32,000 nucleotides of DNA from Candidatus Saccharimonadota bacterium (GCA_004563595.2 CP042461.1:1311104-1343103), one strand, 5' to 3'. Counted from the stretch's first letter, positions 1 to 32,000 are shown. Translations and numbers: made by a program. Notes: generated from the sequence alone by a model not told the origin.

Positions 1-259
1 GAGTAAGATAGTTGATTGCATTTACCATAAGAACAATAGTTCTTACTCATGTGAAGCTGCCTGGTCAATTCACTACAATTATATTTTCTAGATCAAAAAA
101 GGTAAGAGTATTATATTTTAAAAACTCTTCTAATTTTGGGATCAAAACTGAAGATTCGTTTCCTTTTATATTCCATGAGGCTTTTCCTTGCATTTGCCTC
201 TTATCATCAAATAATATCAAAGTACAGGGGGATGAAAGAGCATCTATAAATAAGTTCAT
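1..259 (-). CDS. tsaB: tRNA threonylcarbamoyladenosine (t6A) biosynthesis protein TsaB/YeaZ; N-terminal part, truncated by the window edge
   Basis: Minus-strand ATG at 257-259. Translation is MNLFIDALSSPCTLILFDD...LENIIVVN, then the TGA at 65-67 read as Gly gives the family motif GPGSFTGVRTIVLMVNAINYL. The frame stays open to position 2. Confidence 0.75.
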
Positions 260-389
260 TATGGATAGGATTACTTTTAATATTTTCTTTTATAAGTGTA
301 CTTCTGTTGTTATTTTTGTAAAGAACTTTCTTTATTTTTTTAGATTTTTCTTTATAATCAAGCAAATATTAAAAAATAAAATAACCTAC

Positions 390-3300
390 GTGAAATCTCT
401 AGAAATAAATAAAAGCTATATAAACAGTTGAAATACTTTTTCAAAACTTCTCTTACTTCAAAGATGGCTGGAAAATAACTCTCAAAAACTTGATGGAAGT
501 ATTATGGTCGTTCAGAATGAGAAAGATATACAAAGTTACCTAAAAATATCACTTTTCTTAGGTATAAAAATGTCAAAGTTGAACAATATATCTGAGCTTG
601 TTGACCTTATATATAATAAGATCTGAAATTATATAGTGAGTACAGATTTTTTTGAAATTCAAATACCCAACACCAATCATTTAGAAAAAAAGTTTATTAT
701 TACTCTGAAAAAAGGTCAAAATATAGCTCCTGAAGAAATAAGTAAACAGCTCAATGATTTTTGATACAAACATTCTGAACATAACACAAAGTGAAGCTTT
801 AAAGTAAATGGAGATATATTGAGTATTACAAACTCAACATGAGAAGTTGAATTCAAAATTAGTTTTTGGGGAAATACTATTGAAGAGATTCTTTTAATAG
901 AAGAATCATCCAATAATACTAAAAACCTAGAGACAGTTTCTATTTGAAAAAGAGAAACTATTCATAACTTCCAAGTAACAGACACCTTTCATCTTGATTT
1001 AAAAAATAAACTTCATTCTGAGAATATATTTCATATTTTAGACTCTCTTGATTTTTCAGGTTATTTTGATGAATTTAATACAGATCTTAATAACTATATT
1101 CAATTTAATTCTCTCACACATATTCAAAATAAAGAAGCTCAAATCAACCTATGAATAAATGACCTTTATTTAGAAAAAATTGAAGACTTAAAACATATTT
1201 TAGAAGAGAACTGAATTTCAAAGAAAACTATTTATACAAAAAGTATCTGAGCAATAAAAAATTTTATCGAATATAATAACCTTCAGAGTATTGAAATTAT
1301 TGAAACAAAACTAAATAATTTAAAAAGTTTTCGTTCAGCAACTGAAATTGTAATTTGTGATGACAATATTTCAAGAATTTTTGTTAAAAAGAGAATTAAA
1401 AGAAATCTCAGTAAAAGCTTAGACTTACTCCTACAAATTAAGCCTTGAGATTTCATTGTCCATGTTGATCATGGAATATGAGTTTTTAAACAAATACTCG
1501 AAAAAGAACTCCCTGTTCAAAATGGACAAATCATAAAAAAAGAATACATAGAGCTTGAATACAAGAATAATGATAAGCTATTTGTTCCTATTACAGAAGT
1601 ATCAAGGGTCAATAAATATGTCTGATCTGAGAATCCAAAGTTGACAGGGTTATCGACAAAAGAATGGGAGAAAAAACTATCTAAAGCCAAAGGTGATATT
1701 GAAAGTATTGCCTGAGAACTCTTAGAGGTATTTGCCAAAAGGAAGCTCCAAAAATGATATAGTTTTACAAGTTACCCAACAGAGGAAGCAAGATTTTCAA
1801 ACTCTTTTGAATATACCTATACAGATGACCAATTCAACATCATTCGTGAAATAAATGAAGATATGGAATCTTCTCAACCAATGGATAGACTTGTTTCGTG
1901 AGATGTCTGATTTTGAAAAACAGAAATTGCATTTCATGCTATGTATAAAGCTATGATAAATAATAAACAAGCGGCCCTTATCTCTCCTCTTATTGTACTT
2001 GCTTATGAGCATTATGAAAAAGCGAAAGAAAGGTTTGCTCTGTTTCCATTTAATATATGAGTAATAACGAGGTTTGAAAAACCTGCCATAGTCAAAAATA
2101 CTCTCGAAAAACTCAAAAATGGAAAAATTGACCTTATCATTTGAACTCATAGGTTACTCAGCGAAGATATAGAATTCAAAAATTTATGAATCCTTGTAAT
2201 TGATGAAGAACATAAGTTTTGAGTAAAAGACAAAGAAAAAATCAAGAAATTCAAATGAAATATAGACATGTTGTCTCTCTCAGCAACACCAATCCCTAGA
2301 AGTCTAAATATGGCATTAAATGGTATAAAAAGCATGAGTATGCTTACCACTCCTCCTATATGAAGAATGCCAATCGAGACACTGGTGTCTAAGTTTGACG
2401 ATAATATTATTGCTGAAGCCTGAAAAAGAGAGTTTGAAAGATGATGACAGTTATTTTTCATACATAATAGGGTCGGGACTATTGAAACTATGAGAGATAC
2501 TCTCTGAAAAATTTTTAAGAATAAGAAAATCATTATTGCTCACGGCCAACTTCCATGAGATACTCTTGAAAAAAGAATACTCTCATTTAAAAGAAAAGAA
2601 TATGATATATTATTATCTACAACTGTGATAGAAAATGGTATCGATTTCCCAAATGTAAATACTATCATTATCAATGATGCTTATAACTTTTGAATATCGC
2701 AAATTCATCAACTCAGATGAAGAGTGTGAAGAAGTGATAAACAATGACATTGTTATCTCTTATTTAATAAAGATAAGATCAAAGATGATGCAGCAAAGAG
2801 ACTCAAAACCATTGTCGACTATAGCCACCTCTGAGCATGATTTGAATTAGCAATCAAAGACTTGGAAATCAGATGAGGTTGAGACCTCCTATGAATAAAA
2901 CAAAGTGGACAGTCTAGTGAGATCTGAGTAAATCTATTTTTAGAAATGCTTGAAAATAAAATTGAAGAACTGAAGAGGACCGGTCTTGATACTAACTCTA
3001 AAAATTCAGTAGAAAGAAATATATCTAGAATTAATACAACAATAGACTTAAATATTTCAGCCTTTATTCCTGATTACTTTTTTAGCTCAGAGCTTGATAA
3101 AATAAATTTTTATAGAGAAATAGAGAGCCTCGAGACCTGAGAAGACTTAGAAAATATAATAACTGATTTCAAAGAAATTAATAGTGACATACCAAGTGAA
3201 ACAAATAATTTTTTTACTTTACTTGAGTTAAAACTTATTGCTTCTCAGTATAAAATCAAACATATCAAAAAAGTCTGAATTAACTACCAAATAGATTTTG

Positions 3301-3491
3301 ATACAGAAATAAGCCTTGATGAGTTAAAATTATTTTTGAAGTTAGATAGCGAAGTAAAGCTTGAGGTAACCACTATTCATAGACTCAGATCAAAGGTAAA
3401 AAACTTTGGGACTGATTATGATTTTATGAAATATGTTTTAGATATAATGAAAGGAACAATGAAGAAAAGGAAAGTGAAGCTGAAAAGGTAA
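390..3491 (+). CDS. mfd: Transcription-repair coupling factor Mfd
   Basis: Frame 0 has no TAA/TAG from 390 to the TAA at 3489-3491 (checked line by line). Motifs include DHGIGVF...[19 protein letters not shown] and Walker A GDVGFGKTE at 1899-1925, where all three Gly are TGA. Also [22 protein letters not shown] and a TRG-like C-terminus. The start is uncertain: GTG at 390 fits the expected N-terminal length, and the first downstream in-frame ATG is at 504. Confidence 0.9.
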
Positions 3492-3594
3492 CCTCACCCT
3501 AAATTCCCTCTCCTTTGGAGGAGAAGGAAGCTACATTTTTTTTGAGGCTATCTTTTCCCCTCTCCTCCAAAGGAGAGGGGTTAGGGGTGAGGTT
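3490..3594. repeat. Inverted pair of a GC-rich 41-bp palindromic element (REP-like doublet) forming a long hairpin just after the mfd stop; likely mfd terminator
   Basis: 3490-3530 is AACCTCACCCTAAATTCCCTCTCCTTTGGAGGAGAAGGAAG. The reverse complement of 3554-3594 is AACCTCACCCCTAACCCCTCTCCTTTGGAGGAGAGGGGAAA. The arms are separated by about 23 nt and followed by TTATTTTC. A third copy lies at 4869-4910. Confidence 0.8.
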
Positions 3595-3672
3595 ATTTTC
3601 AAATTAAAGTTGAATTTTTAGACTTTAATCATATATTAGATGCACAAATTTTACAAAATAAATACGAAAAAT

Positions 3673-4866
3673 ATGAAGTTTACAAAAATATTTTTGATAC
3701 TCTTAATGCTAAGTCTATCACTCGCAAGTTGTACAAACAAAGAATGAAATACAATTACTAAAGACAAAAGTCAAACGGGGACACAAGCTATTTTAGATGA
3801 TAATAAAACAAAGATTATGGATAACTACCAAACAAAAAAACTCGAAGATGGAGATATTGTTGCTGTTATGAAAACAACAAATGGTACTATACAAATAAAA
3901 CTATTCACTGAGGATGTTCCAAAAACAACTCTGAACTTTATGTGACTTGCTCAACAAGGATACTATGATGGGATTATTTTTCATAGAGTTATAAAAGGAT
4001 TTATGATCCAAGGAGGTGATCCAGACGGAACAGGACAAGGTTGAAAGAGTATTTATGGAGCAAAGTTTGATGATGAATTTTCTGATAAACTCAGTAACAT
4101 AACTGGTTCAATTTCCATGGCAAACTCTGGACCAAATACAAATGGAAGCCAATTCTTTATTAATCAAGCTGATAATACAAATCTAGATTTTAATAAAGGT
4201 GATACAAGATCAAAACACTCTGTTTTTGGACAAGTTGTTGAAGGAATGGATAACGTAGATAAAATAGCAAAAGTACAAACGGCTGAACAAGATAGACCAG
4301 TAAAAGAAGTAAAAATTATATCGCTTGTAATCAAACAATATAAGAACGGTACCCTAAAAGATTATAGCTTTGATCTTGAAGCGGAAAAAGAAAAAGTAGA
4401 AACTGAAATGAAAAAAGCTGCTGAAGCAAAGAAAGAGGCTGATAAAAATAAAGCAGTAGAAGCATGAAATAAAATCGCTGTTCACTATACACTTACTCTT
4501 GAGAATGGAGACAAAGTAGATAGTAGTATAGACAGATGAGACGCTTTTGAATTTACTGTTGGAGCTTGAATGACAATCAAATGATTTGATGATGGTGTAA
4601 TCTGAATGAAAATCGGAGATAAAAAGACTCTTACACTTGATCCAAAAGATGCGTATGGTGAAGCTGAAATATCTCTCCCTAAAGCACAATTTAAATCATT
4701 TGAAGATGCTGGTATTAAGCTAGAAAAAGGAGCGAAACTTCCAACTCAAATGTGAGAAATCAATGTACTTGAAGTAAGTGATGATACTGTAACAATTGAA
4801 AACAACCATGACTTAGCATGAAAGACTCTTATATTTGATGTTGAAATGATTGAATTTAAGGATTAA
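3673..4866 (+). CDS. Lipoprotein with fused cyclophilin-type and FKBP/SlyD-type peptidyl-prolyl isomerase domains
   Basis: Signal peptide and lipobox [20 protein letters not shown]. Cyclophilin part: [21 protein letters not shown](TGA=G)KSIYG...[16 protein letters not shown]...[15 protein letters not shown]-rich linker follows, then the FKBP part: [16 protein letters not shown]...[29 protein letters not shown]...[14 protein letters not shown]. No in-frame TAA/TAG until 4864-4866. Confidence 0.9.
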
Positions 4867-5093: not shown

Positions 5094-5996
5094 ATGTGAA
5101 AGGTTATATGTTCATTATTTCTGTTTATTTTTTTGTTTTGATCAACATCTGCTTATACAGCAACTCAAAACGATAAAGATACTGTGGATGTTCTTACGTC
5201 TAAAATAAATAAAATAATAGAAAAAAAATGAGAAAAACTACGTACGATTTTTATAAAAAAATTATCTACACTAAAACATAAAATCAAAAAAAATGAGAAA
5301 ATTACTTACATTATTTGAGAATTAGTAAACAACTTGAACAACTCTACTCAAGCCATTGAAGACTTGATTAAAGAAGTAGAGAATCACAGTAATAATACTA
5401 ATAAAAACAGCGATAAATTATCATCTTTATTATTACTACAAGAATATGGTTCAATGTATAATAAATTGATTGACAACGATATATATTGAAAAAATTGAAA
5501 ATTTGATTTAGGATGTTGAAACTATGCAATTAAATGGAATGAAATATATAAAGATCAATTTCAAAATATATATAACAAATCAAATCTTATAAATAATATT
5601 TTTCTAATGGATTTAATGAAATATGATATTGAAAAATTCAACAAATATTTTAAAAAAACATGTAAAAATGATGCAAAAATTGATTCCATGCTGTTTACTA
5701 CAACAAGTATCTCCCGTAACCTAGATAGCTTTGATAATTCCTACTATACAGAAATATATATATTTTATAATAATTGGTACAATACACTATATAAATATCT
5801 GAAGGATTCTAAACCATGAGAAACTTGTAATACAGTCTGGGAAGATTGGGATGGATTTACTTATGACAAAATGGAGTATTTAAAAACATATACAAAAAAT
5901 ACCAACTCTGATATATACCTAAAATACTTCTCTGAACTTCAAGATAAATTTAGAAAAATGATGAAAGAAGAATGTAATGGTCTTAAAATAAAATAA
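5094..5996 (+). CDS. Secreted hypothetical protein (300 aa)
   Basis: ATG at 5094, then MGKVICSLFLFIFLFGSTSA|YTAT, a signal peptide in which two Gly are TGA. The frame is open to the TAA at 5994-5996. It contains track ORF 5607-5819. No family recognised. Confidence 0.7.
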
Positions 5997-6012: not shown

Positions 6013-6045
6013 AAAAAAAGGCAGCTTTAAAACTGCCTTTTTTTA
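6013..6045. terminator. Bidirectional hairpin terminator between convergent genes
   Basis: AAAGGCAG (6017-6024) pairs with CTGCCTTT (6033-6040), flanked by an A-run and a T-run. It overlaps the stop of the minus-strand transposase gene. Confidence 0.7.
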
Positions 6046-6561
6046 TTTCCCATACTCTAACTCATCCAAACTCAACTCCTTATTATCCAAGTACTTCTTT
6101 GGACCAGTCTTTAAAAGTCTATGAATAGATGTATACTTATAATCTTTAATATCCTCAACGAGCTTATACTTAAGTGGATTATAATTCACAAAGCTCATAC
6201 ATTTATGTAAGTATTCTTCTGAATCAATACGAGTGCTTTTAAATCTCCCTTTAAAAACAGGCTGTTTTAGCTCTGAGGGGTATTTCTTCCTATAAGAGGT
6301 TGCATATGCTCATTGAAGTCTTTTCATGAATTCTGAGAGCCTATGTCATGTTTTGATATTTTTTACTATAAGATGAAAATGGTTTGGTAAAAATGAATAT
6401 GAAACGAGCTTTATATCAGAATAATCTTTGAGATATCGAAGAAGGAGTTCATAAAACTTATCAAATTCTTGATCGTCGTGAAAGAGTGGCTCAGTTGAGA
6501 GTCACTTGTTATAGATATGGTAATAACTATTTTCTAGAAATTCTAGTCTGGAATTTCACAT
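6043..6561 (-). CDS. IS200/IS605-family Y1 (HUH) transposase-like protein, RAYT type (REP-associated tyrosine transposase)
   Basis: 172 aa: MGNSRLEFLENSYYHIYNKG...VSYSFLPNHFHLIVK (HUH motif)...FKGRFKSTRIDSEEYLHKCMSFVNYNPLKYKLV (catalytic-Tyr region). Single gene with no tnpB. No inverted repeats seen in its immediate flanks. Confidence 0.8.
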
Positions 6562-6650: not shown

Positions 6651-6676
6651 AAAAACCTTACTTTACGTAAGGCATT
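6651..6676 (-). terminator. Rho-independent terminator of the LRR gene
   Basis: The minus-strand RNA reads CCTTAC-GTAAA-GTAAGG followed by TTTTTT. It overlaps the stop codon. Confidence 0.6.
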
Positions 6677-7218
6677 GCATGAGTAGAAAGATATACTTTA
6701 TTAAACTCTGTCATTTTATCGAGTAATTCTTGACTGACGTCATTTCATTCAACATTCAAGTATTGAAGCTTATTTAACTTTGTAAGTCATTTAATATCTT
6801 CTTCGTCTAGATTATTATAAGACACATCAAGTGTTTTGAGTTTTTCTAACCCTGAGAATCATTCTAAGTTTGTGAGCTTATTATTACTCACATTTATGTG
6901 TCTAATATTAGCTGGAAGCTTTAAGTCTGAGCCAAACCTTAAGTTATTATTACCCAGATCTATTCTTCAGAGTTTATTATATCCCGATATATCAAGTAAT
7001 TCTATCTCATTATTTCATAGATAAATATTATTAACTTCTGTACCTGTTAAATAGAGGTTTAAATTGATAAAACCTTTTATTTCTTTCCCTACTAAGTTTA
7101 TACTTCTATCTGGTGTTTCATAACTTGCTAAAAGGCTTTTATTTGATAATTCAAATGCTGTTTTTCAACATGAAGCAAGTAGAAGAATCGAAACTATAGC
7201 TATAAGTACTTTTTTCAT
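6658..7218 (-). CDS. Leucine-rich-repeat (internalin-like) lipoprotein
   Basis: Lipobox MKKVLIAIVSILLLASC, then tandem LRRs of about 22 aa (LxxLxLxxNxL): IELLDISGYNKLGRIDLGNNNL, IRHINVSNNKLTNLEGFSGLEKLKTLDVSYNNL, LNKLQYLNVEGNDV. No in-frame TAA/TAG. Confidence 0.8.
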
Positions 7219-7323: not shown

Positions 7324-8658
7324 TTAATAACTTTTTGATCATAAGTCTAGCTCGTCTTCCATATTAATATGAAGGTCCTCTGATCATGTAATTCATAGAA
7401 TTGTATAATCTATTCATGACTTTACAAGATTTAATGTAATTACGGTACTTGAAGTTGTTCCAGCAATAACTATTTTATAGTCCTCTCCTCTTGTGGAATT
7501 TGACAGTGTTCTATTTGTCTGTAGTAGTGCTGACATATTAAACTCTAATACATCACCACTCATGACTCATACTACTCTATTTGATGAACTTTCACTATTA
7601 TAAATAGAATAAACAACATCGGCATCTCAACTTGATCATAGCGTTGATAAGCGAAGTTTTTCAAGCTCTATAGTAGGAGAATTATTTCAATTTTCAATAG
7701 TATTATTCCCAAACATAGCTCTGATATTCAACTCTGGAATGTTACTTGAAAGATTTTGCTCTACCTTTACTTCTAATACACCGGGAACAATAGAAAAAAG
7801 TTCTCATGGTTCAGTAACAGTATACATAGCTATATCATTTCCTGATGAGATTCCTTTTACATCATCAAATCAAACTTTACTTACATAGATATCCTTGATA
7901 GTTTTCCCTGCTTTTTCCCTCCCTATTGGTGCTGTTTTTATCTTAAGGCGTGCTTGTCTAATATTTTGAGTGATTATAAAATCATTAAGATTATCAAAGG
8001 TAATTTTTGCTTGGGTAGAACTAATAATATCTAGCTTTGATGATCATACTGAATCTATTACACTTCATTCAAGATATAACGTAGCTGTTTCGATCGAACT
8101 CTTTATATCTGTTAGGTCTTCTGGCCCCGAAATATAAAAGATAACTTTCCCTACGTCAGACGCTTCGTATAACGAGCTAAAGCTTTGTTTATATATAAAT
8201 ACTTCCTCTCAAGCTAAAAGAGTTTTCTCTTCTTCATTATAACTATCTGAGAATCCTGGATACACTGTCATTTCTTTCTCTTCTATTATTTTTTCGTCTT
8301 CAGTGATTTCATTATCTTTTATGATTATTGCTTGCTCTGATTTTAAAGCAGCTAATGTATATGAAGTTTTTAGAGTTAAATAATTGAGTATTAATTTTAA
8401 TTTTTTTGATCTCACATCAGTTCTATATTTTAATTTTTTTTCAAGAGAGGTCAGTTTGTTTGTAAGAAGATTCAAAAAGATTTCATTTTCTTTCTTTTTT
8501 TCTAGAAGACTATCAATAGCTTTGATGTATTTACTTCAATTTGTAATAATTGAAAGTCTTTCTGCTGATTCAGAAATATCATTTTCTAGGTTTGCATGTA
8601 CTCAACTTTGAGAGAATACAAATAGAAAAGATAGTAACAATGTAATAATTTTTTTCAT
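7324..8658 (-). CDS. Secreted protein (444 aa) whose C-terminal domain is homologous to the C-terminus of the adjacent S-layer-like protein
   Basis: Signal peptide MKKIITLLLSFLFVFSQSGVHA, a coiled-coil-like K/E/L-rich N-terminal part (contains track ORF 8209-8475), then a beta-rich part. The C-terminus is ...YKIVIAGTTSSTVITLNLVKSGIDYTILGITGSEDLHINMEDELDLGSKSY*. No in-frame TAA/TAG. Confidence 0.75.
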
Positions 8659-8718
8659 GATCATAATATTAAAAAATTAAATATAATTCTATTATATACA
8701 ATCCTAAATTTTACACAA

Positions 8719-16631: not shown

Positions 16632-16637
16632 GTTTTT

Positions 16638-17885: not shown

Positions 17886-17894
17886 AAAAAAATT

Positions 17895-18797: not shown

Positions 18798-18842
18798 ATA
18801 TATAAAACAAAAACAAAAAAAGCTGCTTTACTATTATACTTT

Positions 18843-21464
18843 TTATTTTGATATATTTCTTTCAATAGCATTTAAAAAATGAGTACTATCTGAGTATTTA
18901 ATGTTTATATCTTTTGGAAAAGCTTCAAGAAAAACCTTTCCCCAATTTGTTGAATAAATTCTATCATCAATTAAAATAACAATTCATTTATCATTTTTAC
19001 TTCTTATAAGCCTTCAAAATCCTTGCTTCAGCTTTATTATTGCTTTTGGCACAGAATAATCTTTAAACGGGTCTTTAAAGAAAACACTTCTCGCCTGGAA
19101 TATTGGATCTGAAGGAACAGAAAAAGGAAATTTATGGATTACAAGGTATTTTAATTTTTCTCAAGGTATGTCAACTCATTCCCAAAAACTATCTGTTCAT
19201 AATAAAATCGAATTTTCTGGACTTTCCATAAAAAAACTCATCAGCTTTGTTTTACTTCATCAAATTGATTGGGCATATAAATTAATATCATCATGCTTTA
19301 ATTGTAAATTTAAAGCAGTGTATATTTTTCTAATGATAGAAAAACTTGTTAATAAGGTGAGTGTTTTCCCCCTTACCAAAGAATAAAATAACCCTAAAAA
19401 ATGAACCACTTCTTTTGAATTATTTTTAATACTTCACAAATTATTCGGAATAAATAATGTCGCTTGTTTATTATAGTCAAAATCACTTTCAAATGAGTAG
19501 AATTGAAATTTTTCTAAAGAAAGTAATTGAATAAAGTAATCAAAGGAATCTGATATTTTCAAGGTTGCTGAAGTGAGAATAACACTTCTCAGGTTTCACC
19601 AGAGATTATTCATTAAATAGTTCCCTGGATTTAATAATGTACAATCTAATGATACCCCTGTATTATCATGATAGTTTGCAATTTTTATGTACTCATCTTC
19701 AGAGTCCTTATTTAAAAGAATCTTTAATATGTTTAAATAACTTTGAAGTGAAGTAATTTCTTTTGTAAAATCATACTCAGATGTACATGCTAAAAAATCA
19801 ATAATATCTAAAAAGCTTAATTCAATCTTACTTTTTAACGATACAAAATCAGCCTCAGGATAAAAATCTTTTTTAATAAGAATATTTTTATATTTTTGCT
19901 CTTTTGATACCTTTCCATCAATATAACTCATTGCATAATCCATGATTAAAGCAATATGTCACAGTATTTGTTCTTTTCCATTTAAGAACTCTATTTTTTT
20001 TATATTTTTTTTATCTAAGGTATTTTCAATAAAATTAAAAATTTCTGTGATATTTTTTTCATTTATTCTTGTCTTTAATGATTCAGTTATAGAATCCTCT
20101 ATGCTATGAGCCTCGTCAATAACAAGGTTTTTAATTTTTCAAAAAATAGAGTTCTCAGATTTTAAGTCAGAAAATAATAAGCTATGGTTAATGACTACTA
20201 TATTAGAAGTTTCAACTCGTTGCCTTGCTTTAAATAAAAATTCATAATCCCTATATATATTCTTATCCGTAAGAAGAAGAGCAGAATCTGCATTTATATT
20301 TCTTAAATATCAAAATTCAGCTCAAAAATAATTTAATTCATCTAATTCTCAATATGTAGTTTCAAAAACCCAAAGAGCGATCTTAGACAAAAAATTAACT
20401 TTATAATAGTCAATTTTGTCGAGTACAATTTCGTCAAAAAACCCTTTTAAACTCATATAATTCCTTCTTCACTTTAGCTTCGTATGGTGGAAATCAAATC
20501 AAATATTATCTTCTAAAAAAGAAAGGTCTTTATAAAAAAGTTGGTCTTGTAATGTCTTTGTTTTTGTTGAAATAAAGACTTTTTCTCATGTTTTTACAGA
20601 ATGAAGTATAGAAGGAATTAGGTATGCAAAACTTTTTCATAATCCTGTTGGAGCTTCAATAACAGATTTATTTCACTTTTTCATTGTTTCAAAAACAATT
20701 TTTGTCATCTCAAGTTGATTTTCTCTCTTTTCTACCGTTCCTAAGTTTTCATAGATACTTTCCAGTCACTTAATTTTTAATTTTTTGTCTACAATTAAAT
20801 CCTTTATTTCTATTAGTTTTCATACTTTTTTTAATATTTGCTTTTCAAACGATTCAAAAATAATTGATTCTACATCCTCACTTAATAAATAATCTATCCG
20901 GTAATCTATATTCTGGTCTTCAGAAAGCTCAAAAATATACTTTAATATTTTTTTCTTTGTAACAGATAACTTTTTAAATTTCCCTGTAAGTTTTTCAAAT
21001 AGTCTGATAGTTGCCATTACATCATTTAATGCTCTATGAGCTCAAGAAAATGGAACATTAAATGAGCGACATAACATTTCTAAATTTAATGATTTTTCAT
21101 GAAAACAAAGCATATTTGCTAGAAAAAAAGTATCTAATACTATATTTTCTCGTACATTTATTCCTTTTTCTATAAAAAAGTCCCTATCAAAAAAAACATT
21201 ATGTCACAATAAGGGGGTATTTCATATAAATGCTAGAATATCCTTTTTCAGTTCATCTAATACAGGGGCTCCTTCTACATCGCTATCAAATATATTTGTA
21301 ATATTTGATATCAATTCTGGAATTGGAACTCATGGATTTACAAGTGATGAAAAGGTATCTAAAATTTTATAGGTTTTCTCATCAAACTTTACTAATGCGA
21401 TTTCTATTATTTCATCGTTGTATCTATCTAAACCTGTTGTTTCTAAATCAAAAGCTATTATCAT
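18843..21464 (-). CDS. dinG: DinG-family ATP-dependent helicase with an N-terminal DnaQ-like 3'-5' exonuclease domain
   Basis: 873 aa. Exonuclease motifs: MIIAFDLETTGL (Exo I), LLGHNVFFDRDF (Exo II), AHRALNDVMAT (Exo III). Helicase motif I: VIEAPTGLGKSFAYLIPS. Track ORFs 20820-21017 and 19596-19943 are in frame. No in-frame TAA/TAG. Confidence 0.9.
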
Positions 21465-21535
21465 TTTTTAAAATAATGTTGAATAAAGTATTCTCTTTGA
21501 TATAATAATAAATATTAAAGATTAACAAAAATTAA

Positions 21536-22213
21536 ATGAAAAAAATAATACTTTCCATTATTTTTCTGATATTTTTTTCAAGTATTCATTCTGTTTATAC
21601 TGCGGAAAGTATAGAGAATAGAGGCTCTTCATATAAACTAGGTTTTGATACTGATCAAATTTCACTCATTGAGGAATATCTCATAACTCACAAGCGTAAG
21701 ATTGAACTTTTTGCTCAAAAGTATGAAATTAAAAGTAATTCCGAATTTAATGCCCTTTTTAATGATATCTGAGATATGATCTATATCTTAAAAAAAATAC
21801 AAGAAAATAATATAGCCCCTGAAAAGTCAAAAGAAATCCTGAAAAAAATTGTAACAAAAATTAAAGTTACAAATGATAGACTCAAAGTATTATTAAAGAA
21901 TCAAAAAGAGCTTTTCGAAAAAAAACTTAAATGAAAAAAGTCTTCATACGTTAGGTTAGGAACAAAAGTTGGATCTCAATTAGATAAAATAATTGTAAGC
22001 TTTGCTGTCTCTATTAAATCAAAAAGACTTGAAAATTCTCAAAAACGAATCATTATTCATCATCTCATAGAGTTAGAAAAATATAGTAAAAGACTCAAAA
22101 ATTTTAAAAATGTGCAGTTTCAAAATGAAAAAGAGCTAAAAATATGATTTATCCGAATCCTAAAAGACATTAAAAAAGAAATGATTTGAATAAAAGAATC
22201 TTTAAAAAAATAA
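21536..22213 (+). CDS. Secreted K-rich hypothetical protein (225 aa)
   Basis: Signal peptide MKKIILSIIFLIFFSSIHSVYTA. Track ORF 21536-21772 continues through four TGA codons to the TAA at 22211-22213. The protein is predicted helical and K/E/L-rich. Confidence 0.7.
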
Positions 22214-22241
22214 AACTACAGATAAGCTTATCTGTAGTTTT
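22212..22241. terminator. Perfect 30-bp palindrome acting as a bidirectional terminator between convergent genes
   Basis: AAAACTACAGATAAGCTTATCTGTAGTTTT, centred on AAGCTT. It overlaps both stop codons. Confidence 0.75.
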
Positions 22242-22947
22242 ATTTTAAATCTATCCTATTAAATAACTCATTTTTTTCAGAAGATGAAAGATGTTTGTAC
22301 TCTCATGACTTCAGGCTTCATAGTTCTATATTTTCAATTCTAATTCTTTTTAATTTCTTTACTTTTGCTCAGACTTTTTCAACCATTCTTCTTATTTGTC
22401 TATTCTTTCATTCTGTAAGAACGATAGTAAAGGTCCCTGATGATACTCTTTTTATTTTTACCTCTTTTGTATAAGATCATAAAATGAGCATTGATTTTTT
22501 CATTTTATCTAATTCACTATCCATAATTGGTCAGAAAACTTCAACAAGGTACTCTTTTTCATGACCATATCTTGGATGGATGAGATAATTAGTAAGCCTT
22601 CCATCATTTGTCATCAGAATAAGTCCATCACTTTCTTTATCCAACCTTCATATAGGAAAAATTCTTTCTTTGACATCCATTATGTCAACAATATTTTTAT
22701 CTCACCATTCAGCACAAGTCGATACTATTCCTCTTGGTTTATTTAATTTATAATAGACTAAATCTTTCTGTTCTTTAATAGCCACATCTTTCATCTCCAC
22801 CTTGTCTGTATCTGGATCAACTGATTGTCCAATCTTAGCTACTTCTCAATTTACTTTTACCAGTCACCTTTCTATATAATCTTCTGCCTTTCTACGAGAA
22901 CATATTCCAGCTTGAGACATATATTTTTGTAATCTCATTTTATCCAT
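22240..22947 (-). CDS. RsuA/RluB-family rRNA pseudouridine synthase with an N-terminal S4 domain
   Basis: 235 aa: MDKMRLQKYMSQAGICSRRKAEDYIERGLVKVNGE (S4 domain), YYKLNKPRGIVST, catalytic GRLDKESDGLILMTNDG, LTEGKNRQIRRM. Confidence 0.85.
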
Positions 22948-23240
22948 TATAAGTTATTGTAATAATTTAAATAATACTCTGCCTCAAAATAATTCACTTT
23001 TTTTCTGTTACAACTCCAACTTTTAACTGTGTTCTCTCTTACATTTAATTCTGTGTTTCATATCTCGCAGACCAGACTATCTTTACAATCTGCCATTTTT
23101 ACAAGAGTTTGCCTCGCTTCTTCATCTCAGATTCATCAATATCAGTTACAAAAATTTGTAAAAAAGAATGTGTACATTATCAAATAGAGTATATAAGATA
23201 GTACTCAAATGATTATAAAAATTTCAAAATATCTTTTCAT
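22947..23240 (-). CDS. Small membrane protein (97 aa), hypothetical
   Basis: MKRYFEIFIIIGVLSYILYLIMYTFFF (TM segment), then a Cys-containing tail. Its TAA overlaps the downstream ATG (TAATG), and it starts 3 nt after the murB stop. The open frame sits inside a tight operon. Confidence 0.55.
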
Positions 23241-23243
23241 AGC

Positions 23244-24128
23244 CTACTTGTTACGGATAATCCTCACCTCTGGTTCCAATATTATATTATACTTATCTTT
23301 CACTATTTTTTGAGCATATTCAATAAGAGATAATAAATCTTTGTATGATGCTGTATCATCACTCATTAAAAAATTTGCATGCAATTCAGAAAAAAAAGCT
23401 CCTCATATCTTATATCATTTTAATCAACTTTCTTCAATTAACCTTCCTGCAGTATACTCCCTTGAAGGATTTTTAAAAAATGAGCCACAGGTATTTCATT
23501 TTGGTTGTTTATGTTCCCTAAAGTAAATATTATCTACATTAGAAGCATATTTTTCAACTTTTTTTGAAAGGTCAAAATAAGCTTTAATAAGAAAATATTG
23601 TCATGTAGTCTTTAATATACTATTACGATAAGAAAAGTCCATTTCATTTTTAGACAATAGTTTTATTATTCAATTTTCGAGATCAAAAACTTCAGCATTT
23701 ATAAAATTATTTTCTATTTCTAAGCCAAAACATCAAGCATTTCAAAATACAGCTCCTCATATAGACCCTGGAAGTCAAATAAATCTATGCCAGAGATTCT
23801 GCTCATGATGGTCTTCTAACTCTTGGGCTATATTAGATATAACTGATGAAGAATAAGATTCTAGTATTTGTGTCTCTTTATTATAATCCCATCATCTAAG
23901 ACTATTTTTAATGATAAGTCCATTAAACTTTTCAAAAGCAAATAATAGATTTGTCCCTCATCAAATAAAAAGATGATCTATATTTTTTTCTTTGATAAAA
24001 TCAAAAATATCTCATAGCTTATTTACATCGTTTTGACAGGATATTTCAAAAAAGTACCTTGTTATAGCTCTTGTTTTAAAGTTAGACAATTCAGATATGT
24101 CTACATTTTCTCTTAATGTATCGATCAT
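23244..24128 (-). CDS. murB: UDP-N-acetylenolpyruvoylglucosamine reductase
   Basis: 294 aa: FIGGGTNLL, GLPGSIGGAVFGNAGCFG, FSYRNS, CGSFFKNP, AGRLIEESGLKGYKIGGAFFSELHANF. Confidence 0.9.
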
Positions 24129-24134
24129 ATATAA

Positions 24135-26951: not shown

Positions 26952-27010
26952 TTTCTATAAAAAATTAACTGAATAAATGTATTTAAAATACGACCTATCT
27001 ATTGTAAGCA

Positions 27011-27052
27011 AAAAAAAATATATTCAAAGATTTTTTTGAATATATTTTTTTT
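27011..27052. terminator. AT-rich hairpin terminator after comFC
   Basis: AAAAAAAATATATTCAAA (27011-27028) pairs with TTTGAATATATTTTTTTT (27035-27052). Confidence 0.55.
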
Positions 27053-27749
27053 AATCAGATGCAATCACTAATCATATAACTTCTTTCACTCCATTTTCTT
27101 TCAGTAATTTAGAAATCACATCAATTGTAGTTCCTGTTGAAATAACATCATCAACAAGAATAACTTTTATATTGTCGAGTTTGTCTACATACTTTTTATT
27201 TATTTTAAAGGCTTTTTCTAAATTAAAATGTCTTACTTTCTTTGAAAGCTTACTTTGTTGTCTAGTATTTTTTACTCTTTTAAGCAGTTTTTTTTCATAA
27301 TCTATTTTGAGTTTATCAGATATGTATCCTGATAGAATATCACTCTGATTATAACCTCTTTTTAACTTTCTGGTAAAGAACATTGGAACTGATAGAATGA
27401 TATAATCATCTTTATTCGCATATGTTTCATTTTTTATAAATACTTTTGTCAGATATCTTGCAAAATCTTCAAATATATCTTTTTTATGATAAAATTTTGC
27501 GTCTTTTATGAGTTTTTGTATTACTTCATTACTATAATGAGTCAAAATAATAACTTTATCATAAAATACATCTCATGTGCATCACCCGTGAAGTCAAAAA
27601 TTTTCTGAAGGTCCTTTGCAGATATAACACATTGGATTAAAATTATGTTGCATTCTAAAACAGCCTAAACATAAAAAATGTCATTCTTCGTGACAAGAAT
27701 AACATTTTTTAGGAGCAATAATATCTTTAATAAGTTTTATAATTTTCAT
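27051..27749 (-). CDS. comFC: ComF-family phosphoribosyltransferase-domain competence protein (ComFC)
   Basis: 232 aa. N-terminal Cys clusters: CYSCHEEGHFLCLGC...CYIC. C-terminal PRTase motif: VILVDDVISTGTTI. Contains track ORF 27072-27545, extended through a TGA at both ends. Confidence 0.8.
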
Positions 27750-27750
27750 A

Positions 27751-29151
27751 CTACATGTTTAAGAACATTTTTGATAAACTATCTACTCAAAACCCTGTAG
27801 TTCATTTTGCAAATAACCCATATGGTTCATAGGTATTATTTGCTACTCATGCAATATCTATATGGGTAAATTTTTCATTATTATCAAGGAAATGATATAT
27901 GAATGCTCCTCACATAGTAGATCCTGAATATATTCACTTTGTCCAGTTATCAAGATCTGCAATTTCTGATTTACACTTCTCAACAAAATAATGATCAAAA
28001 GGAAATTCGGAATATTTTTCAAAGTCTGTTTTTGATTTTTTTAATAATTCATCAATTACCTTTCTGTCTGTTCACATGATTCCAGCATACCTATATCCAA
28101 GTGCAAAAAGTGCGACTCAAGTGAGGGTTGCTATTGTCATCATATTATCGATTTTATAATTTTTTGAAAGGTATGAAACACCATCTGCTAAAATAAGTCT
28201 TCATTCAGCATCTGTGTTCGTGATATTGACTGTTTTTCATGAATATGACGTTAGTATATCTGAAGGTCTATAAGATTCAGCAGAGACGAAATTTTCAGCC
28301 ATTGGGATACATGCAATAATATTTACTTTGATTTTTTTCTCATCGAGTTCTTTCATGATAGCATATACTTGGGCTGCTCAGCACATATCATCTTTCATAT
28401 CGTACATCATCTGTGTTTTTATATCGAGTCAACCACTATCAAAAACAATTCATTTTCAAACAAACCCAAAAGTTGGAGCTTTTTTGTCCACAATTCTTTC
28501 CAAAATGACCATATGAGGTTTATTTGCGCTTCATTTTCATACAGCATGTAAAAGTCCAAGTCATTTTTTCTCTATATCTTTTGGTGAAAATACTTTTACT
28601 TTTGTATTTTTCCACTTTGTTTTTTTGATTATTTTTGCAAAATTCTCAGGACTCAAATCACAAGCAGGAGTTTCTCATAGATTTCTTGCAAGAATAATAT
28701 TCTCAAGAGTTGAAAGCCTTTCATTTACTACTTTGTTTTGTTTTTTATCTATAAAAATATTAAGAACACTCTCTTCCTTTTTTGATTTATAAGTCTCAAA
28801 TTTATATCTTGAAAGAATACACGTATCTATAATATTCAGTAGGTTTTTATCGTTATTTGAACAAATCGTTAGATTATTTGGAAGAGATGGAAGCTCTTTT
28901 CATAAAAATTCAATAAGCGTTTCGTTTCCTTTTTTTGAATAATATAAAATAAATATATTTTCAAAATGTTTCTCTCAGAGAAAAAATTGTAACTTTATAT
29001 TTTTTTCTTCTGAAATAACTTCTTTAATTTTTATGAGAATCTTCTCATCTATTTTTAGGCTATTTAGAGCTCATAAATCTGAATTTTTTTCAACTAAATA
29101 AACGAAATTAGATTTTTTAATATCTCAAATTTTATTTTTTATTTGTATCAT
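27751..29151 (-). CDS. pepA: Leucyl aminopeptidase (M17 family)
   Basis: 466 aa: VGKGIVFDSGGLDIK, MKDDMCGAA, NTDAEGRLILADG, IDIAGVA. Its stop lies 1 nt before the comFC ATG. Confidence 0.9.
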
Positions 29152-29187
29152 ATTTTTATAAATCAAAAAGTATTATTTAGATAATAT

Positions 29188-29832
29188 TTAATAATCAAAG
29201 AATTCAAAATATAAAATATAGAATACATAAAATAAGATTAAAACTGAAAATAGGAGTGAAACATAGTTTTTAAAATTCTTAAAAAAAAGAATATTAAATA
29301 TTATAGAGTAAAATAAAATTCAAAGAATAACCAAGTTGGTTCCATTTAAAAATATATCTAAAATTCAAAATATTGAAGAAAAATATAAAAATAATAATGA
29401 AAGATACTTGAGCTGTTTCCTTATTGATTTTGGCTTATTAAATATACTTATACTAAGTAATCAATAATATATACAAAATGAAATTATAAATGAGATAATT
29501 GAAAAGTAATATATATTAAATGAAAAAATATATAATAAAATATAAAATGAAAAGAAAAAAAACGAATAAGATAGTAATGCAGAGTTCTCTTTTAAAAAAC
29601 TCTCACTTTTTAGGTTTTCTCTTTTTTCTTTTTTAAAATCTGTAAAATACAGTAAGAATAAAAATCAAAGAATAAAGAATGTAATTGAAGTAATTCGTAG
29701 ATCAAAATATATACTTTGTAGATCATAGTTATTCACTGACTGGAAGAGAATACTTCATCCTACAGATAAACTATAAAATATATAAAAAATGAGGGAATAT
29801 ATGAGGGAAATAGTGAAAAGTAATAATCTCAT
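29188..29832 (-). CDS. Polytopic integral membrane protein (214 aa), hypothetical
   Basis: ATG at 29830-29832, frame open to the TAA at 29188-29190. Very hydrophobic and F/I/L/Y-rich, with about 6 predicted TM segments (MRLLLFTISLIYSLIFYIFYSLSVGG...). Confidence 0.55.
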
Positions 29833-29846
29833 TAGAAGCCTGGAGA

Positions 29847-30788
29847 TTAAAAATTAATTAATCAAAATATAATAATAAAAACAAAAAATACAATGTTTAA
29901 AATGAAATTTAAAAATTTAAGCTTAAAATGCATCGAGAAATAAATAAATAATGTTATCACGAAAAAGAAAAGTCATTGATAATTAAACCTTATTTGATTT
30001 ATGTATAAATCCTCTGAACCAAGATAAAATCTTGTATATACAAATATGATAAAAATAATAGAATAACAAATCAATATAAAGAAAACATATGATCGAATAG
30101 CAAAAACTATTTTTTCAATTCTTTCAATCATTTTTATATATCATTTAACTATTGATGTATAAGAGAAGTTGAGGCCTTTTTGCTTTGCTTCAAATAAAGA
30201 AATATTTTGTTGTATTACTTTTCTTTTCAAGAAAATATCATCTCTTTTTTTCGTAGAAATAGAAATCATAAAAATACGTTTTATAATTTCCTTTGTATTT
30301 TTTTTAAGTTTTTCTTTATACTTTTTTAGTAAAAGTTCCGTTTTAATATATGAATGTGAGCTCCTATCGACAACCTTTTTCTTTTCTTTTTCTTTCTCTT
30401 TTAAATTTTCAAAAAAATGACTTATTCAAGAAAAAAATGATGAAACCAAAAAATTAATATCTCTTCATTTTTCAATAAACTGCTTTGAGGATCATATATC
30501 TTTTAGCAATTTATTTGTCTGTTTTAATAGTTTTTTTGATTTTAATGTTTTTGTTTCTTCTAGCTCCCTCAGTTCCAGTATTCAAATTTTTAAAAGTGCT
30601 AACTCTCATACTTCTTTTATTTTTGAAATATTTGTGGATTTTTTTATTTTAATAATTGAATTATATACTTTTTTTAATTTTTCTTTTTGTTCAATATCTA
30701 GATGAGAAATTTCTCACCTATCAATAAGGTTTAATAGTTTATCTAAAACAAAGTCTATTAATTTATAAACATCATCTAACTCCTTTTT
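29847..30788 (-). CDS. Distal 313 codons of a 463-codon reading frame: K/E-rich coiled-coil region plus C-terminal TM segments. No canonical start codon near its 5' end
   Basis: Same frame as 30789-31238, separated only by the TAA at 30789-30791. Open for 313 sense codons in AT-rich DNA. The first TTG is at 30509 and the first ATG at 30269. The C-terminus MIERIEKIVFAIRSYVFFILICYSIIFIIFVY... is membrane-spanning. Confidence 0.5.
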
Positions 30789-31238
30789 TAAATAAAAATT
30801 TTCATGATTTTCTTTTTTTTCTTGTTTTTTAATGTTTTTTTCAACTGATTTTCACTTTTTTTCTAATTTTTTAAATCATACAAAGATTTCATACTCTGCT
30901 TCCAGGTCTTTTATAATCTTCTCTTTTCATTCATCTGTTATATTTTCTTCATCTTGATCATATAATATATTTACTCTATATTCTAAGTCTTTTCTTAGTT
31001 TTAAATAAATTTTAAAAATGTCATCTCAAATAATTTTTCATTTTTTTATTTCACCATTTTTTTCTCCCTCAAAAATAAATTTATGCCCCAAGCTATGTTC
31101 TCATGATACTTCGTTTATACTTAAAATAGAGTATCATTCTTGATGAACCCTATCTCTCGCATTTTTTTCATTTTCAGAACTCAAGAGAAGTGTAAACTTC
31201 TTTTGATTCTTACTCACTGCTATTTTAAACTTTTTCAT
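30789..31238 (-). CDS. Hypothetical protein (149 aa as written) with an N-terminal motif resembling the N-terminus of GspF/PilC-family proteins
   Basis: ATG 31236-31238. MKKFKIAVSKNQKKFTLLLSSENEKNARDRVHQEGYSILSINEVS resembles the F-x-Y-x-A...G-x-x-x-G...L...G motif at GspF N-termini. It ends at the TAA at 30789-30791, inside a K-rich stretch between two A6 tracts. Confidence 0.5.
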
Positions 31239-31259
31239 ATCCGAACAATTGGTGTAATA

Positions 31260-31508
31260 TTAAACTATTTCACTTTTTGGTACTTTTGCTTCTAATGCAG
31301 CCATAAAATCAATTCATTGTTCTCCAAAATTTTTAGTAAAACAATTATTTAATCTCTCACAGCATTTTTCTGTAGATTTTTTATCTAAGCTAGAAAACCT
31401 ATCTTCTAGTCTTTGAAATAAAACAGACTCTTTATTTTCTGGATTTGTTAATTTATTTAATGCATCATTAATATTAATTGATGATAGCGTTAATTCAACA
31501 TTTTTCAT
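31260..31508 (-). CDS. Small hypothetical protein (82 aa)
   Basis: Track ORF 31314-31508 extended through a TGA to the TAA at 31260-31262: MKNVELTLSSININDALNKL...CCERLNNCFTKNFGEQGIDFMAALEAKVPKSEIV. Confidence 0.5.
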
Positions 31509-31512
31509 GAAA

Positions 31513-31761
31513 TTATAAATTATTAATTAAAAATGAAAACGAATTTAATTCTTTTTGTTTCTCTACAGCTTCTTTTTTTCTCATTCAAGCAATTTCAGAA
31601 AAATTATTTTTATTTATATCATCTAATTCTTTTATTTCAATTTCCTTTGTAAATTCACTTAAAGAGATATAAAGCCTATCTAATCAATCTTTATTTAAAA
31701 TACTTAAAGCTTCTAAATAAAGATCTTTTTGTACATCGTGAATTTGCAAAGAAAGAATCAT
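31513..31761 (-). CDS. Small hypothetical helical protein (82 aa)
   Basis: ATG 31759-31761, frame open through two TGA codons to the TAA at 31513-31515: MILSLQIHDVQKDLYLEALSILNKDGLDRLYISLSEF... Its stop lies 4 nt before the next ATG. Confidence 0.5.
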
Positions 31762-32000
31762 AACACTAATTATTTTTTTTCTTTTACTAATATCCTTTTG
31801 TTTTTTCAGAAAATCAAAAATCATATATTTCTTTGTTAAATGGTATCATATGATATTTTAGCATATTTTTTTATATACTCCAAATTTTATGTTTATTATT
31901 TTTTCACATATGTGAGTCTCTTTATTATTTAATTATATAATATAGATATATTATTATTATTAATAGCAATTGTTAAATAGTAAAATTATGCTCTGTAGCC

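Follow-up and report, generated by a model that had tools for sequence, protein, structure and literature searches.

TGA encodes glycine in a 32-kb segment of a Gracilibacteria chromosome and is nearly absent from its S-layer gene

Introduction

The 32,000-nucleotide stretch of DNA analysed here, to which we refer as the window, contains numerous TGA codons within the reading frames of its conserved genes, which raises the question of how this triplet is translated in the organism of origin. An initial annotation had proposed that TGA is read as glycine throughout the window, as in genetic code 25. In this code, which is termed the Candidate Division SR1 / Gracilibacteria code and was reportedly described by Campbell and by Rinke in 2013, UGA encodes glycine, UGG encodes tryptophan and UAA and UAG serve as stops. 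An alternative is code 4, which is used by Mycoplasmatales, several insect endosymbionts and some Eggerthellaceae and Minisyncoccia. It shares the use of UGA as sense codon, the loss of RF2, a tRNA with anticodon UCA and a usually low GC content, but assigns UGA to tryptophan. Here we describe which of these assignments applies to the window and how evenly the codon is distributed among its genes.

Results

Origin and gene content of the window

The window has a GC content of 28.2% and, with TGA read as sense, a coding density of 92%, with 22 tightly packed genes separated by intergenic gaps of down to 1–9 bp (Table 1). Translated with TGA as glycine, its UvrA shows 100% identity to the protein that NCBI lists for Candidatus Gracilibacteria bacterium 28_42_T64 (taxid 1862133, phylum Ca. 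Altimarinota), and the next 118 UvrA relatives are of Gracilibacteria type. In an independent assembly, the 493-kb JGI contig Ga0239576_1000025 matches positions 14135–32000 with 0 mismatches over 17,866 bases. As judged from these sequence relationships, the host belongs to the BD1-5 lineage of the Patescibacteria/CPR, within the Gracilibacteria (BD1-5) / Absconditabacteria (SR1) clade, which is where the initial annotation had placed it. The genome of 28_42_T64 is closed and was published with code 25, with prfA being present and prfB not detected (Sieber et al., 2019, PMC6851277). We are virtually certain that the window stems from the chromosome of this organism, comprising 32 kb of the complete 1.343-Mb genome, and that the organism translates with code 25.

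Table 1. Features of the window. In the motifs quoted for the window, x marks a residue encoded by TGA.
Feature	Coordinates	Strand	Remarks
Whole window	1..32000	.	Chromosomal segment of Candidatus Gracilibacteria bacterium 28_42_T64; code 25 (TGA = Gly)
TsaB-like, 5' part only, off left edge	2..259	-	xPGSFTx, first and last Gly = TGA
Mfd (transcription-repair coupling factor)	390..3491	+	Start uncertain (ATG 261, GTG 390 or ATG 504); ORF from position 12 with 40 TGA; Walker A xDVxFxKTE (E. coli GDVGFGKTE)
Lipoprotein, cyclophilin and FKBP prolyl isomerase domains	3640..4866	+	10 TGA, 26 GGN
Hypothetical secreted protein	5094..5996	+	8 TGA
IS200-like Y1 transposase family protein	6043..6561	-	4 TGA
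Leucine-rich-repeat lipoprotein	6658..7218	-	6 TGA
Hypothetical secreted protein	7324..8664	-	15 TGA
S-layer (SLH-domain) protein, 1304 aa	8805..12719	-	1 TGA, 90 GGN; stop TAG
GT4 glycosyltransferase	12753..13841	-	15 TGA; Trp by TGG (IWWNHHYPWYY)
PilC/GspF-type platform protein (T2SSF)	14176..15342	-	15 TGA
PilB/GspE-type ATPase (T2SSE)	15366..16631	-	22 TGA; Walker A xPTxSGKST (E. coli GPTGSGKST)
Hypothetical protein, pilus gene cluster	16638..17885	-	13 TGA
Hypothetical membrane protein, pilus gene cluster	17895..18797	-	11 TGA
DinG-like helicase, N-terminal RNase T/DnaQ-type exonuclease domain	18843..21464	-	25 TGA; APTGLxKS (E. coli APTGVGKT)
Hypothetical secreted protein	21536..22213	+	4 TGA
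Pseudouridine synthase (S4 and PseudoU_synth_2, RluB/RsuA type)	22240..22947	-	10 TGA; Gly in E. coli RluB at 7 of them
MurB	23244..24128	-	14 TGA; stop TAG
UvrA, 938 aa	24135..26951	-	57 TGA; 44 face Gly in E. coli UvrA
ComF-like phosphoribosyltransferase-domain protein	27051..27749	-	5 TGA
M17 leucyl aminopeptidase	27751..29151	-	21 TGA; Gly in E. coli PepA at 14 of 17 aligned TGA; NTDAExRL (E. coli PepA NTDAEGRL); stop TAG
Hypothetical membrane protein	29188..29832	-	5 TGA
Hypothetical protein, C-terminal membrane region	29847..31238	-	16 TGA
Small hypothetical protein	31513..31824	-	2 TGA

Reading frames with TGA as sense codon

The effect of the TGA assignment is evident in the length of open reading frames, of which only a single one reaches 300 residues under code 11, compared to 14 if TGA is read as sense, whereas opening TAG or TAA instead does not rescue the frames. 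The fragments thus fuse into full-length genes as had been proposed. The 9904 codons of the 22 genes include 319 in-frame TGA, 301 GGN and 29 TGG, and not a single in-frame TAA or TAG. The latter two triplets are retained as stops in the tightly tiled genes, all of which terminate in one or the other as initially annotated (19 in TAA and 3 in TAG). With TGA as glycine, the composition of the encoded proteins amounts to 6.3% Gly and 0.3% Trp, whereas its assignment to tryptophan would lead to 3.0% Gly and 3.5% Trp. Matches to Pfam families, obtained with TGA masked as X, extend over many TGA codons, as illustrated by T2SSE, which is covered from profile positions 9 to 370 of 370, and Peptidase_M17, which is covered from 2 to 309 of 310.

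The suggestion that the standard code cuts almost every gene into pieces of 60–150 residues was correct with respect to the fragmentation but not to the size of the fragments. The pieces between in-frame TGAs have a median length of 18 and a mean of 24 residues, and only 29 of 339 contain 60 residues or more. The S-layer protein, with its single TGA, is an exception to this fragmentation and remains nearly whole under the standard code.

Residues aligned to TGA

To identify the encoded amino acid, we aligned the genes of the window, with TGA masked as X, to their orthologues from E. coli K-12 and tabulated the residues facing each codon. Glycine is found opposite 120 of 186 aligned TGA codons (65%, at a Gly background of 7.4%), whereas none of the 186 faces tryptophan. 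A similar share is found for established glycine codons, with 59% for GGA, 56% for GGT and 50% for GGG. About one third of the aligned TGA codons face residues other than glycine, and since the same proportion is observed for GGN codons, we ascribe these positions to ordinary divergence. TGG, in turn, shows a 53-fold enrichment for tryptophan, in line with its proposed retention as Trp codon, which is also reflected in the tryptophans of the GT4 glycosyltransferase. In a likelihood test, glycine is favoured as meaning of TGA by 201 nats over serine as next best residue and by 300 nats over tryptophan, while all sense codons that were observed 8 times or more retain their standard assignment.

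The same preference is found in a panel of 147 diverse UvrA proteins, selected as cluster representatives that are at most 55% identical to each other. Glycine is the majority residue at 47 of the 57 TGA columns of UvrA, and in the 33 columns where it is found in at least 90% of the proteins, the window contains TGA in 22 cases, GGN in 11 and no other codon. The codon is located on Walker A glycines of Mfd, PilB, DinG and UvrA, in the latter within both motifs, and it also occurs in the motifs of M17 (NTDAEGR) and cyclophilin (GTGxGGxSIYG). All positions and motifs named in the initial annotation were recovered, with TGA being located in Mfd (1899, 1908 and 1914), PilB (16140 and 16149, minus strand), UvrA (26856 and 26841, encoding TxLSGSxKSS) and MurB (23961 and 23958, encoding xxGTNLL), the motif of the partial TsaB gene on the minus strand at the left edge, and position 4042 in the cyclophilin domain (GTGQGxKSIYG), where solved cyclophilin structures contain glycine.

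Relatives deposited with TGA as tryptophan

Of the 120 UvrA proteins in the public collection that are most closely related to that of the window, 107 are deposited with TGA read as tryptophan according to code 4. In these deposited sequences, columns containing TGA in the window show W (TGA) in 68% and G (GGN) in 21% of cases, and columns containing GGN in the window show W in 49% and G in 30%. From this mixture of both residues at either type of column it follows that TGA and GGN are exchanged as synonyms. The code 4 deposits reflect gene-calling software and not biology. The expectation that any standard-code annotation of the window would be wrong was confirmed, and the code 4 deposits are wrong as well.

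Decoding of UGA

As inferred from the literature, decoding of UGA would rely on a specialised tRNA whose anticodon is UCA and which would be charged by glycyl-tRNA synthetase owing to its glycine identity elements (G1:C72, C2:G71, G3:C70 and U73). Release factor 2, which terminates at UGA, would be lost and RF1 would terminate at UAA and UAG. The window contains neither tRNA nor release-factor genes, and no tRNA(UCA) carrying these glycine identity elements was found in the window or a 5-kb extension. With a search pattern that itself demanded a glycine-type acceptor stem, such tRNA(UCA) was detected in L017, a named Gracilibacteria MAG, and in two AT-rich contigs (L121 and L141), where open reading frames lengthen with TGA as sense.

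Depletion of TGA from the S-layer gene

Although TGA is a common glycine codon in the window, it is not evenly distributed. It accounts for 318 of 529 glycine codons (60%) in the other genes but for only 1 of 91 in the S-layer gene (Fisher p about 1e-30), whose codon bias is very strong (GGT 71%, GC3 9.7%). Relative to the remaining genes, TGA is decreased 60-fold, compared to an only about 2- to 3-fold decrease of other A-ending codons. A corresponding pattern is found in related proteins, where the median W content of 119 S-layer homologues is 0.43%, compared to 6.9% in those UvrA relatives whose deposited sequences have TGA translated as tryptophan. In 9 of 10 pairs located on the same contig, with UvrA deposited in this way, W amounts to 3.4–8.2% in UvrA and 0.2–1.8% in the S-layer protein. 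Judged from these sequences, the avoidance is lineage-wide, encompassing the window and more than 100 related genomes. No description of it was found in the searchable literature, and it may be novel. With the S-layer gene left out, the relation between codon-bias index and TGA share within the window is not significant (rho -0.29, p 0.25).

Discussion

Our analysis shows that UGA is an ordinary glycine codon in this segment, which in most genes encodes about 60% of glycines, with UGG alone specifying tryptophan and UAA and UAG as only stops. The proposed reading of TGA as glycine is confirmed by open reading frames, alignments, likelihood and genome identity, and there is no difference in the code itself between the window and the code 25 system, which it also resembles as part of an AT-rich, small CPR genome with a reported absence of prfB. 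This assignment is not new, having been described for the lineage in 2013 and for this very genome in 2019. In a BD1-5 bacterium other than 28_42_T64, proteomics has identified 97 peptides that are unique to a database with UGA as glycine, 3 to tryptophan and 0 to stop (Hanke et al., 2014, PMC4032931), and the program Codetta inferred a UGA to Gly reassignment for 13 out of 15 species of Gracilibacteria (PMC8629427).

A Mycoplasma-type code 4 would account equally well for TGA being clearly a sense codon, for the AT-rich genome and for the reported absence of RF2, and most public copies indeed show W at TGA positions (e.g. P0001). Still, it is refuted by the alignments, where TGA faces glycine and never tryptophan, and we attribute almost no probability to it in light of the large difference in likelihood, the atypical contents of both Trp and Gly that would result, the occupation of Walker A glycines by TGA and the interchange of TGA and GGN among relatives. 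Even more remote is the standard code, with in-frame TGAs originating from pseudogenes or genome decay, from errors of the assembly, from selenocysteine or from programmed read-through. Each such cause could explain a single in-frame TGA, but not their abundance in genes that are devoid of in-frame TAA and TAG, nor their location at the glycines that are most conserved and the fact that over 100 relatives either keep TGA at these positions or replace it by GGN, so that this reading is refuted as well. Assembly errors are countered by the identity of the independent assembly. Selenocysteine recoding resembles the observed system in that an in-frame UGA is recognised by a tRNA whose anticodon is UCA, but it occurs rarely, requires a SECIS element and takes the place of cysteine, whereas the 319 codons of the window are located on glycine columns and a search of Rfam families, including SECIS elements, gave no match in the window.

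Since the S-layer gene is nearly devoid of TGA, UGA does not appear to be treated as fully equivalent to GGN. Its avoidance could indicate that UGA, while encoding glycine, is decoded imperfectly, either slowly, with partial ambiguity if U34 wobble leads to cross-reading between UGA (Gly) and UGG (Trp), or with occasional termination. Ordinary genes would then tolerate the codon, whereas it would be eliminated where it is costliest. This reading would be in accordance with the decrease of TGA far beyond that of other A-ending codons and the persistence of the avoidance across the lineage. It is also in line with the potential UGA/UGG ambiguity via U34 wobble noted in the Codetta study (PMC8629427) and with the three peptides unique to the UGA=Trp database (Hanke et al., 2014). 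Conversely, plain translational selection for GGT, read by the most abundant tRNA-Gly, could suffice without any error or ambiguity, no significant correlation between bias and TGA share was found beyond the S-layer gene, and although the latter is presumably the most highly expressed gene, its high expression is inferred. We thus regard imperfect decoding as a tentative explanation, towards which we are somewhat more sceptical than inclined. In broader terms, it appears nearly as credible as its opposite that UGA has not become a fully naturalised glycine codon, with decoding by tRNA-Gly(UCA) being slow, limiting or error-prone and selection against UGA scaling with expression. As a second reading, the very rare CGG and CGA codons may be reassigned too. 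Such reassignments, of CGA/CGG to Trp, are described for Absconditabacteria and, for CGG, predicted in some Gracilibacteria (PMC8629427), which as sister or same clade share the low GC content and the scarcity of CGN. In the window, the 9904 codons include 7 CGA, 1 CGG and 3 CGC, and the alignments with E. coli orthologues cover only a single CGA, whose position is not conserved.

In practice, the correct frame of almost every gene of the window depends on translation table 25. Table 11 shatters these genes and table 4 places tryptophan on catalytic glycines, a common error that will impair the prediction of structures, the building of profiles and the inference of functions in the lineage. 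While the reassignment as such can be found in textbooks, the avoidance of UGA in a particular gene is the one aspect that might add to it and, if it extends genome-wide, the depletion in the S-layer gene would provide a handle on the lasting cost of a reassigned stop codon.

Reading frames and gene content of the window

The window has a GC content of 28.2% and contains a single open reading frame of at least 300 amino acids under the standard code versus 14 with TGA as a sense codon, while setting TAG or TAA to sense instead does not rescue the reading frames. From the TGA-sense frames we have delimited 22 genes, which span 92% of the window with several intergenic gaps of just 1–9 bp. Their 9904 codons include 319 TGA, 301 GGN and 29 TGG, and not a single in-frame TAA or TAG. 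As stated in the initial annotation, all genes end in TAA (19) or TAG (3). Read as Gly, TGA yields proteins with 6.3% Gly and 0.3% Trp, compared to 3.0% Gly and 3.5% Trp if it is read as Trp. The coordinates quoted in this annotation were all correct on re-inspection and the proposed TsaB motif is present in a partial gene. Conversely, the pieces of 60–150 residues into which genes were said to be cut by the standard code are in reality far shorter (median 18, mean 24 residues between TGA codons). The fragmentation itself holds in general but not for the gene of an S-layer protein, which is near-intact. An Rfam search of the window gave no match, and scans for tandem repeats, promoters and terminators revealed nothing bearing on the TGA question. 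Features of the window and of tRNA loci retrieved from other genomes and contigs are listed in the table.

Coordinates of features in the window and of tRNA(UCA) genes found elsewhere
Feature	Source	Coordinates	Strand	Remarks
TsaB gene	window	2-259	minus	partial
Cyclophilin-FKBP lipoprotein-like ORF	window	3640-4866	plus	signal peptide followed by LSLASC; two fused prolyl isomerase domains
IS200-like Y1 transposase family protein	window	6043-6561	minus	172 aa; solitary
S-layer (SLH-domain) gene	window	8805-12719	minus	1304 aa; 1 TGA
Terminator-like hairpin	window	14174-14128		strong; past PilC
Type IV pilus or type II secretion-like cluster	window	14176-18797	minus	PilB, PilC and two genes
Gene preceding PilB/PilC	window	16638-17885		no Pfam match
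Gene preceding PilB/PilC	window	17895-18797		no Pfam match
DinG-like helicase	window	18843-21464	minus	N-terminal RNase T/DnaQ-type exonuclease domain
UvrA	window	24135-26951
tRNA(UCA), Gly-type acceptor stem	L017	4485-4561		named Gracilibacteria MAG
tRNA(UCA), Gly-type acceptor stem	L127	~1650-1722	minus	adjoins terminase-large-subunit-like gene
tRNA(UCA) outside recoding clades	L012	1799-1871
tRNA(UCA) outside recoding clades	L015	269-341		in Thr-Tyr-X-Thr cluster
tRNA(UCA) outside recoding clades	L022	596-666
tRNA(UCA) outside recoding clades	L023	2860-2933		in Thr-Tyr-X-Thr cluster
tRNA(UCA) outside recoding clades	L030	153-226		adjoins tRNA-Tyr

The two genes preceding PilB and PilC may encode the missing assembly components of the pilus or secretion cluster. 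Codons of the CGN box are rare in the window, with 7 CGA, 1 CGG and 3 CGC, all located at unconserved sites, 4 of these 11 (2 CGA, 1 CGG and 1 CGC) residing in the gene of the DinG-like helicase. Although CGG was predicted to encode Trp in some Gracilibacteria (PMC8629427), these codons are too few and too poorly placed to permit any inference on an additional reassignment from the window.

TGA encodes glycine

To avoid circularity, TGA was translated as X in alignments and profile searches. Even so, full-length Pfam domains were recognized across many TGA codons, in Mfd, the cyclophilin-FKBP fusion, GT4, PilC, PilB, the DinG-like helicase, a pseudouridine synthase, MurB, UvrA, a ComF-like protein and an M17 aminopeptidase. 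We then used BLASTP alignments to experimentally grounded orthologues of E. coli K-12 to tally the E. coli residue facing each codon of the window. Among 186 aligned TGA positions, 120 (65%) face Gly and none Trp, on a Gly background of 7.4%; the canonical codons GGA, GGT and GGG face Gly at 59% of 59, 56% of 27 and 50% of 30 positions, respectively. TGG faces Trp at 36% of 11 positions, equivalent to a 53-fold enrichment, and has thus retained its meaning as initially proposed. In a BLOSUM-based likelihood test patterned on Codetta, a method for alignment-based inference of the genetic code, Gly as meaning of TGA is ahead of the runner-up Ser by 201 nats and of Trp by 300 nats, and all sense codons that were observed 8 times or more obtain their standard meaning.

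The same assignment is manifested in individual proteins. From an exhaustive search for UvrA we have selected 147 cluster representatives with normal Trp content and no more than 55% identity to the window protein. They carry a majority Gly at 47 of the 57 TGA columns of the latter. Where Gly is found in at least 90% of the 147 proteins, as is the case for 33 columns, the window codon is TGA 22 times, GGN 11 times and never another. Glycines of the Walker A motif are encoded by TGA in Mfd, UvrA (at both sites), PilB and DinG, and further TGA codons lie in the motifs NTDAEGR (M17) and GRLD (RluB). In the cyclophilin domain, the TGA at 4042 is opposite a Gly in solved structures, with a 15-residue segment of the window aligning to GDPTGTGRGGTSIYG. 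The claimed placement of TGA on invariant glycines is thus borne out. UGA is translated as Gly, UGG as Trp, and UAA and UAG terminate.

Source genome and relatives

With TGA read as Gly, all 938 residues of UvrA agree with the NCBI entry for excinuclease ABC subunit UvrA of Candidatus Gracilibacteria bacterium 28_42_T64 (taxid 1862133, phylum Ca. Altimarinota), encoded on a contig of 1,343,103 bp, in agreement with the proposed placement in the Gracilibacteria/Absconditabacteria. The JGI contig Ga0239576_1000025 matches window positions 14135-32000 without mismatch over 17,866 bases. The window stems from the closed 28_42_T64 genome, which was described with genes predicted under code 25 (Sieber et al., 2019; PMC6851277); it has a GC content of 28.87%, 33 tRNA genes and a detected prfA, whereas prfB was not detected (PMC6851277). 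In another BD1-5 bacterium, proteomics identified 97 peptides unique to UGA as Gly, 3 to Trp and none to stop (PMC4032931). Of 15 Gracilibacteria species analyzed with Codetta, 13 were inferred to read UGA as Gly, while the other two lacked a tRNA(UCA) and contained RF2 (PMC8629427), and the GTDB class JAEDAM01, comprising the orders BD1-5 and Absconditabacterales, is handled as a table 25 taxon. The reassignment is therefore textbook knowledge for the clade and already known for the 28_42_T64 genome itself.

An assignment of TGA to Trp (code 4) might appear to be favored by public sequences, since among the 120 UvrA proteins most closely related to that of the window in the public collection, 107 show W at TGA positions. 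These entries are translated with table 4 and include P0001, which is otherwise identical to the window UvrA, and P0003. They show that BD1-5-type proteins are systematically mistranslated in public databases, and code 4 is refuted by the alignments. The same entries serve as codon marker, with W denoting TGA and G denoting GGN. At TGA columns of the window, these relatives contain 68% W and 21% G, and at GGN columns 49% W and 30% G; TGA and GGN are thus exchanged freely for one another, in the manner of synonymous codons. A standard code, with interruptions ascribed to pseudogenes, assembly errors, selenocysteine or read-through, is excluded by the lack of in-frame TAA and TAG, the occupation of invariant glycines by TGA, the retention of TGA sites or their exchange for GGN in more than 100 relatives and the identity of the independent assembly.

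Decoding machinery

As suggested by the literature, UGA would be read by a tRNA with anticodon UCA carrying glycine identity elements and RF2 would be absent. The window contains no tRNA gene, and a tRNA(UCA) with Gly identity is absent from the window and from 5 kb past its right end, where the extension on the P0001 locus harbors tRNA-Arg(CCU) as sole tRNA. When one genome per species was scanned with a strict tRNA-shaped pattern, 28 matches were obtained, with 28_42_T64 not among them and only two being relevant (L017 and L027, a Patescibacteria MAG). As the pattern required a Gly acceptor stem, it is the mere existence of a tRNA(UCA) in such genomes that is informative. Among the matches listed in a relaxed scan of metagenome contigs, credible candidates are few (L121, L141 and L127). 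L121 and L141 are AT-rich contigs with longer reading frames if TGA is sense, where the tRNA(UCA) has a Gly-type acceptor stem; its neighboring genes differ between L017 and L121. Most relaxed-scan matches listed resemble glyT(UCC) with a one-base loop deletion. Many an apparent tRNA-Gly(UCA) is of this kind and has a 6-nt anticodon loop (CTTCAA), namely L013, L018, L020, L024, L028, L029, L036 and many BNJ*/VOF* loci of the relaxed scan; the probable cause is a miscounted CC homopolymer in assemblies from long reads.

L127 (3070 bp, 36% GC) contains long reading frames solely with TGA as sense and may belong to a phage that infects a code-25 host and brings its own UGA-decoding tRNA. Gly-type acceptor stems combined with a 7-nt anticodon loop and a UCA anticodon were also found outside known UGA-recoding clades, in genomes or MAGs of Archangium, Gemmatimonadales, Streptococcus sp. 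LQJ-218, Thalassotalea and an alphaproteobacterium. In L015, L023 and L030 their site matches the position of glyT in thrU-tyrU-glyT-thrT of E. coli. These tRNAs may be UGA-suppressor variants of glyT or base-call errors.

The S-layer gene avoids TGA

TGA accounts for 1 of 91 Gly codons in the S-layer gene, compared to 318 of 529 (60%) for the remaining 21 genes taken together (Fisher p ~1e-30). This gene strongly prefers GGT (71% versus 10% in other genes), GCT (85% versus 41%), ACT (75% versus 32%), GTT (80% versus 37%) and TAC (68% versus 18%), a usage of the strongly selected type from which we infer high expression. The drop is 60-fold for TGA compared to 2- to 3-fold for other A-ending codons. 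The cyclophilin-FKBP lipoprotein is also poor in TGA (28% of Gly codons, p = 6e-5). In 119 S-layer homologues, the median content is 0.43% W and 7.1% G, compared to 6.9% W and 2.0% G in UvrA relatives deposited with TGA as W. Similarly, 10 pairs of UvrA and S-layer protein are presumed to share a contig because their contigs are equally long, and in the 9 pairs with UvrA deposited in this way, W amounts to 3.4-8.2% in UvrA and to 0.2-1.8% in the S-layer protein. The avoidance in S-layer genes is thus lineage-wide. We reject horizontal transfer as its cause in view of the GC3 of 9.7%, which is below that of every other gene of the window, the apparent location of a homologue on the contig of UvrA in at least 10 relatives and the lack of TGA in its homologues as well.

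It is conceivable that UGA is decoded as Gly but partly imperfectly, as suggested by its near-absence from the S-layer gene. Codetta's authors considered an ambiguity between UGA and UGG possible through U34 wobble (PMC8629427). Among window genes other than the S-layer gene, TGA share shows no significant graded relation to codon bias (rho -0.29, p 0.25). We regard imperfect decoding as a serious possibility that falls somewhat short of being probable.

Implications

Taken together, the initial observation is confirmed and its interpretation as reassignment of TGA to Gly is supported, with the practical consequence that such sequences should be annotated with table 25 and neither with table 11 nor table 4. 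A full-text literature search found no description of UGA-Gly avoidance in an S-layer gene, and this strong and conserved avoidance is possibly the sole new element of our analysis.
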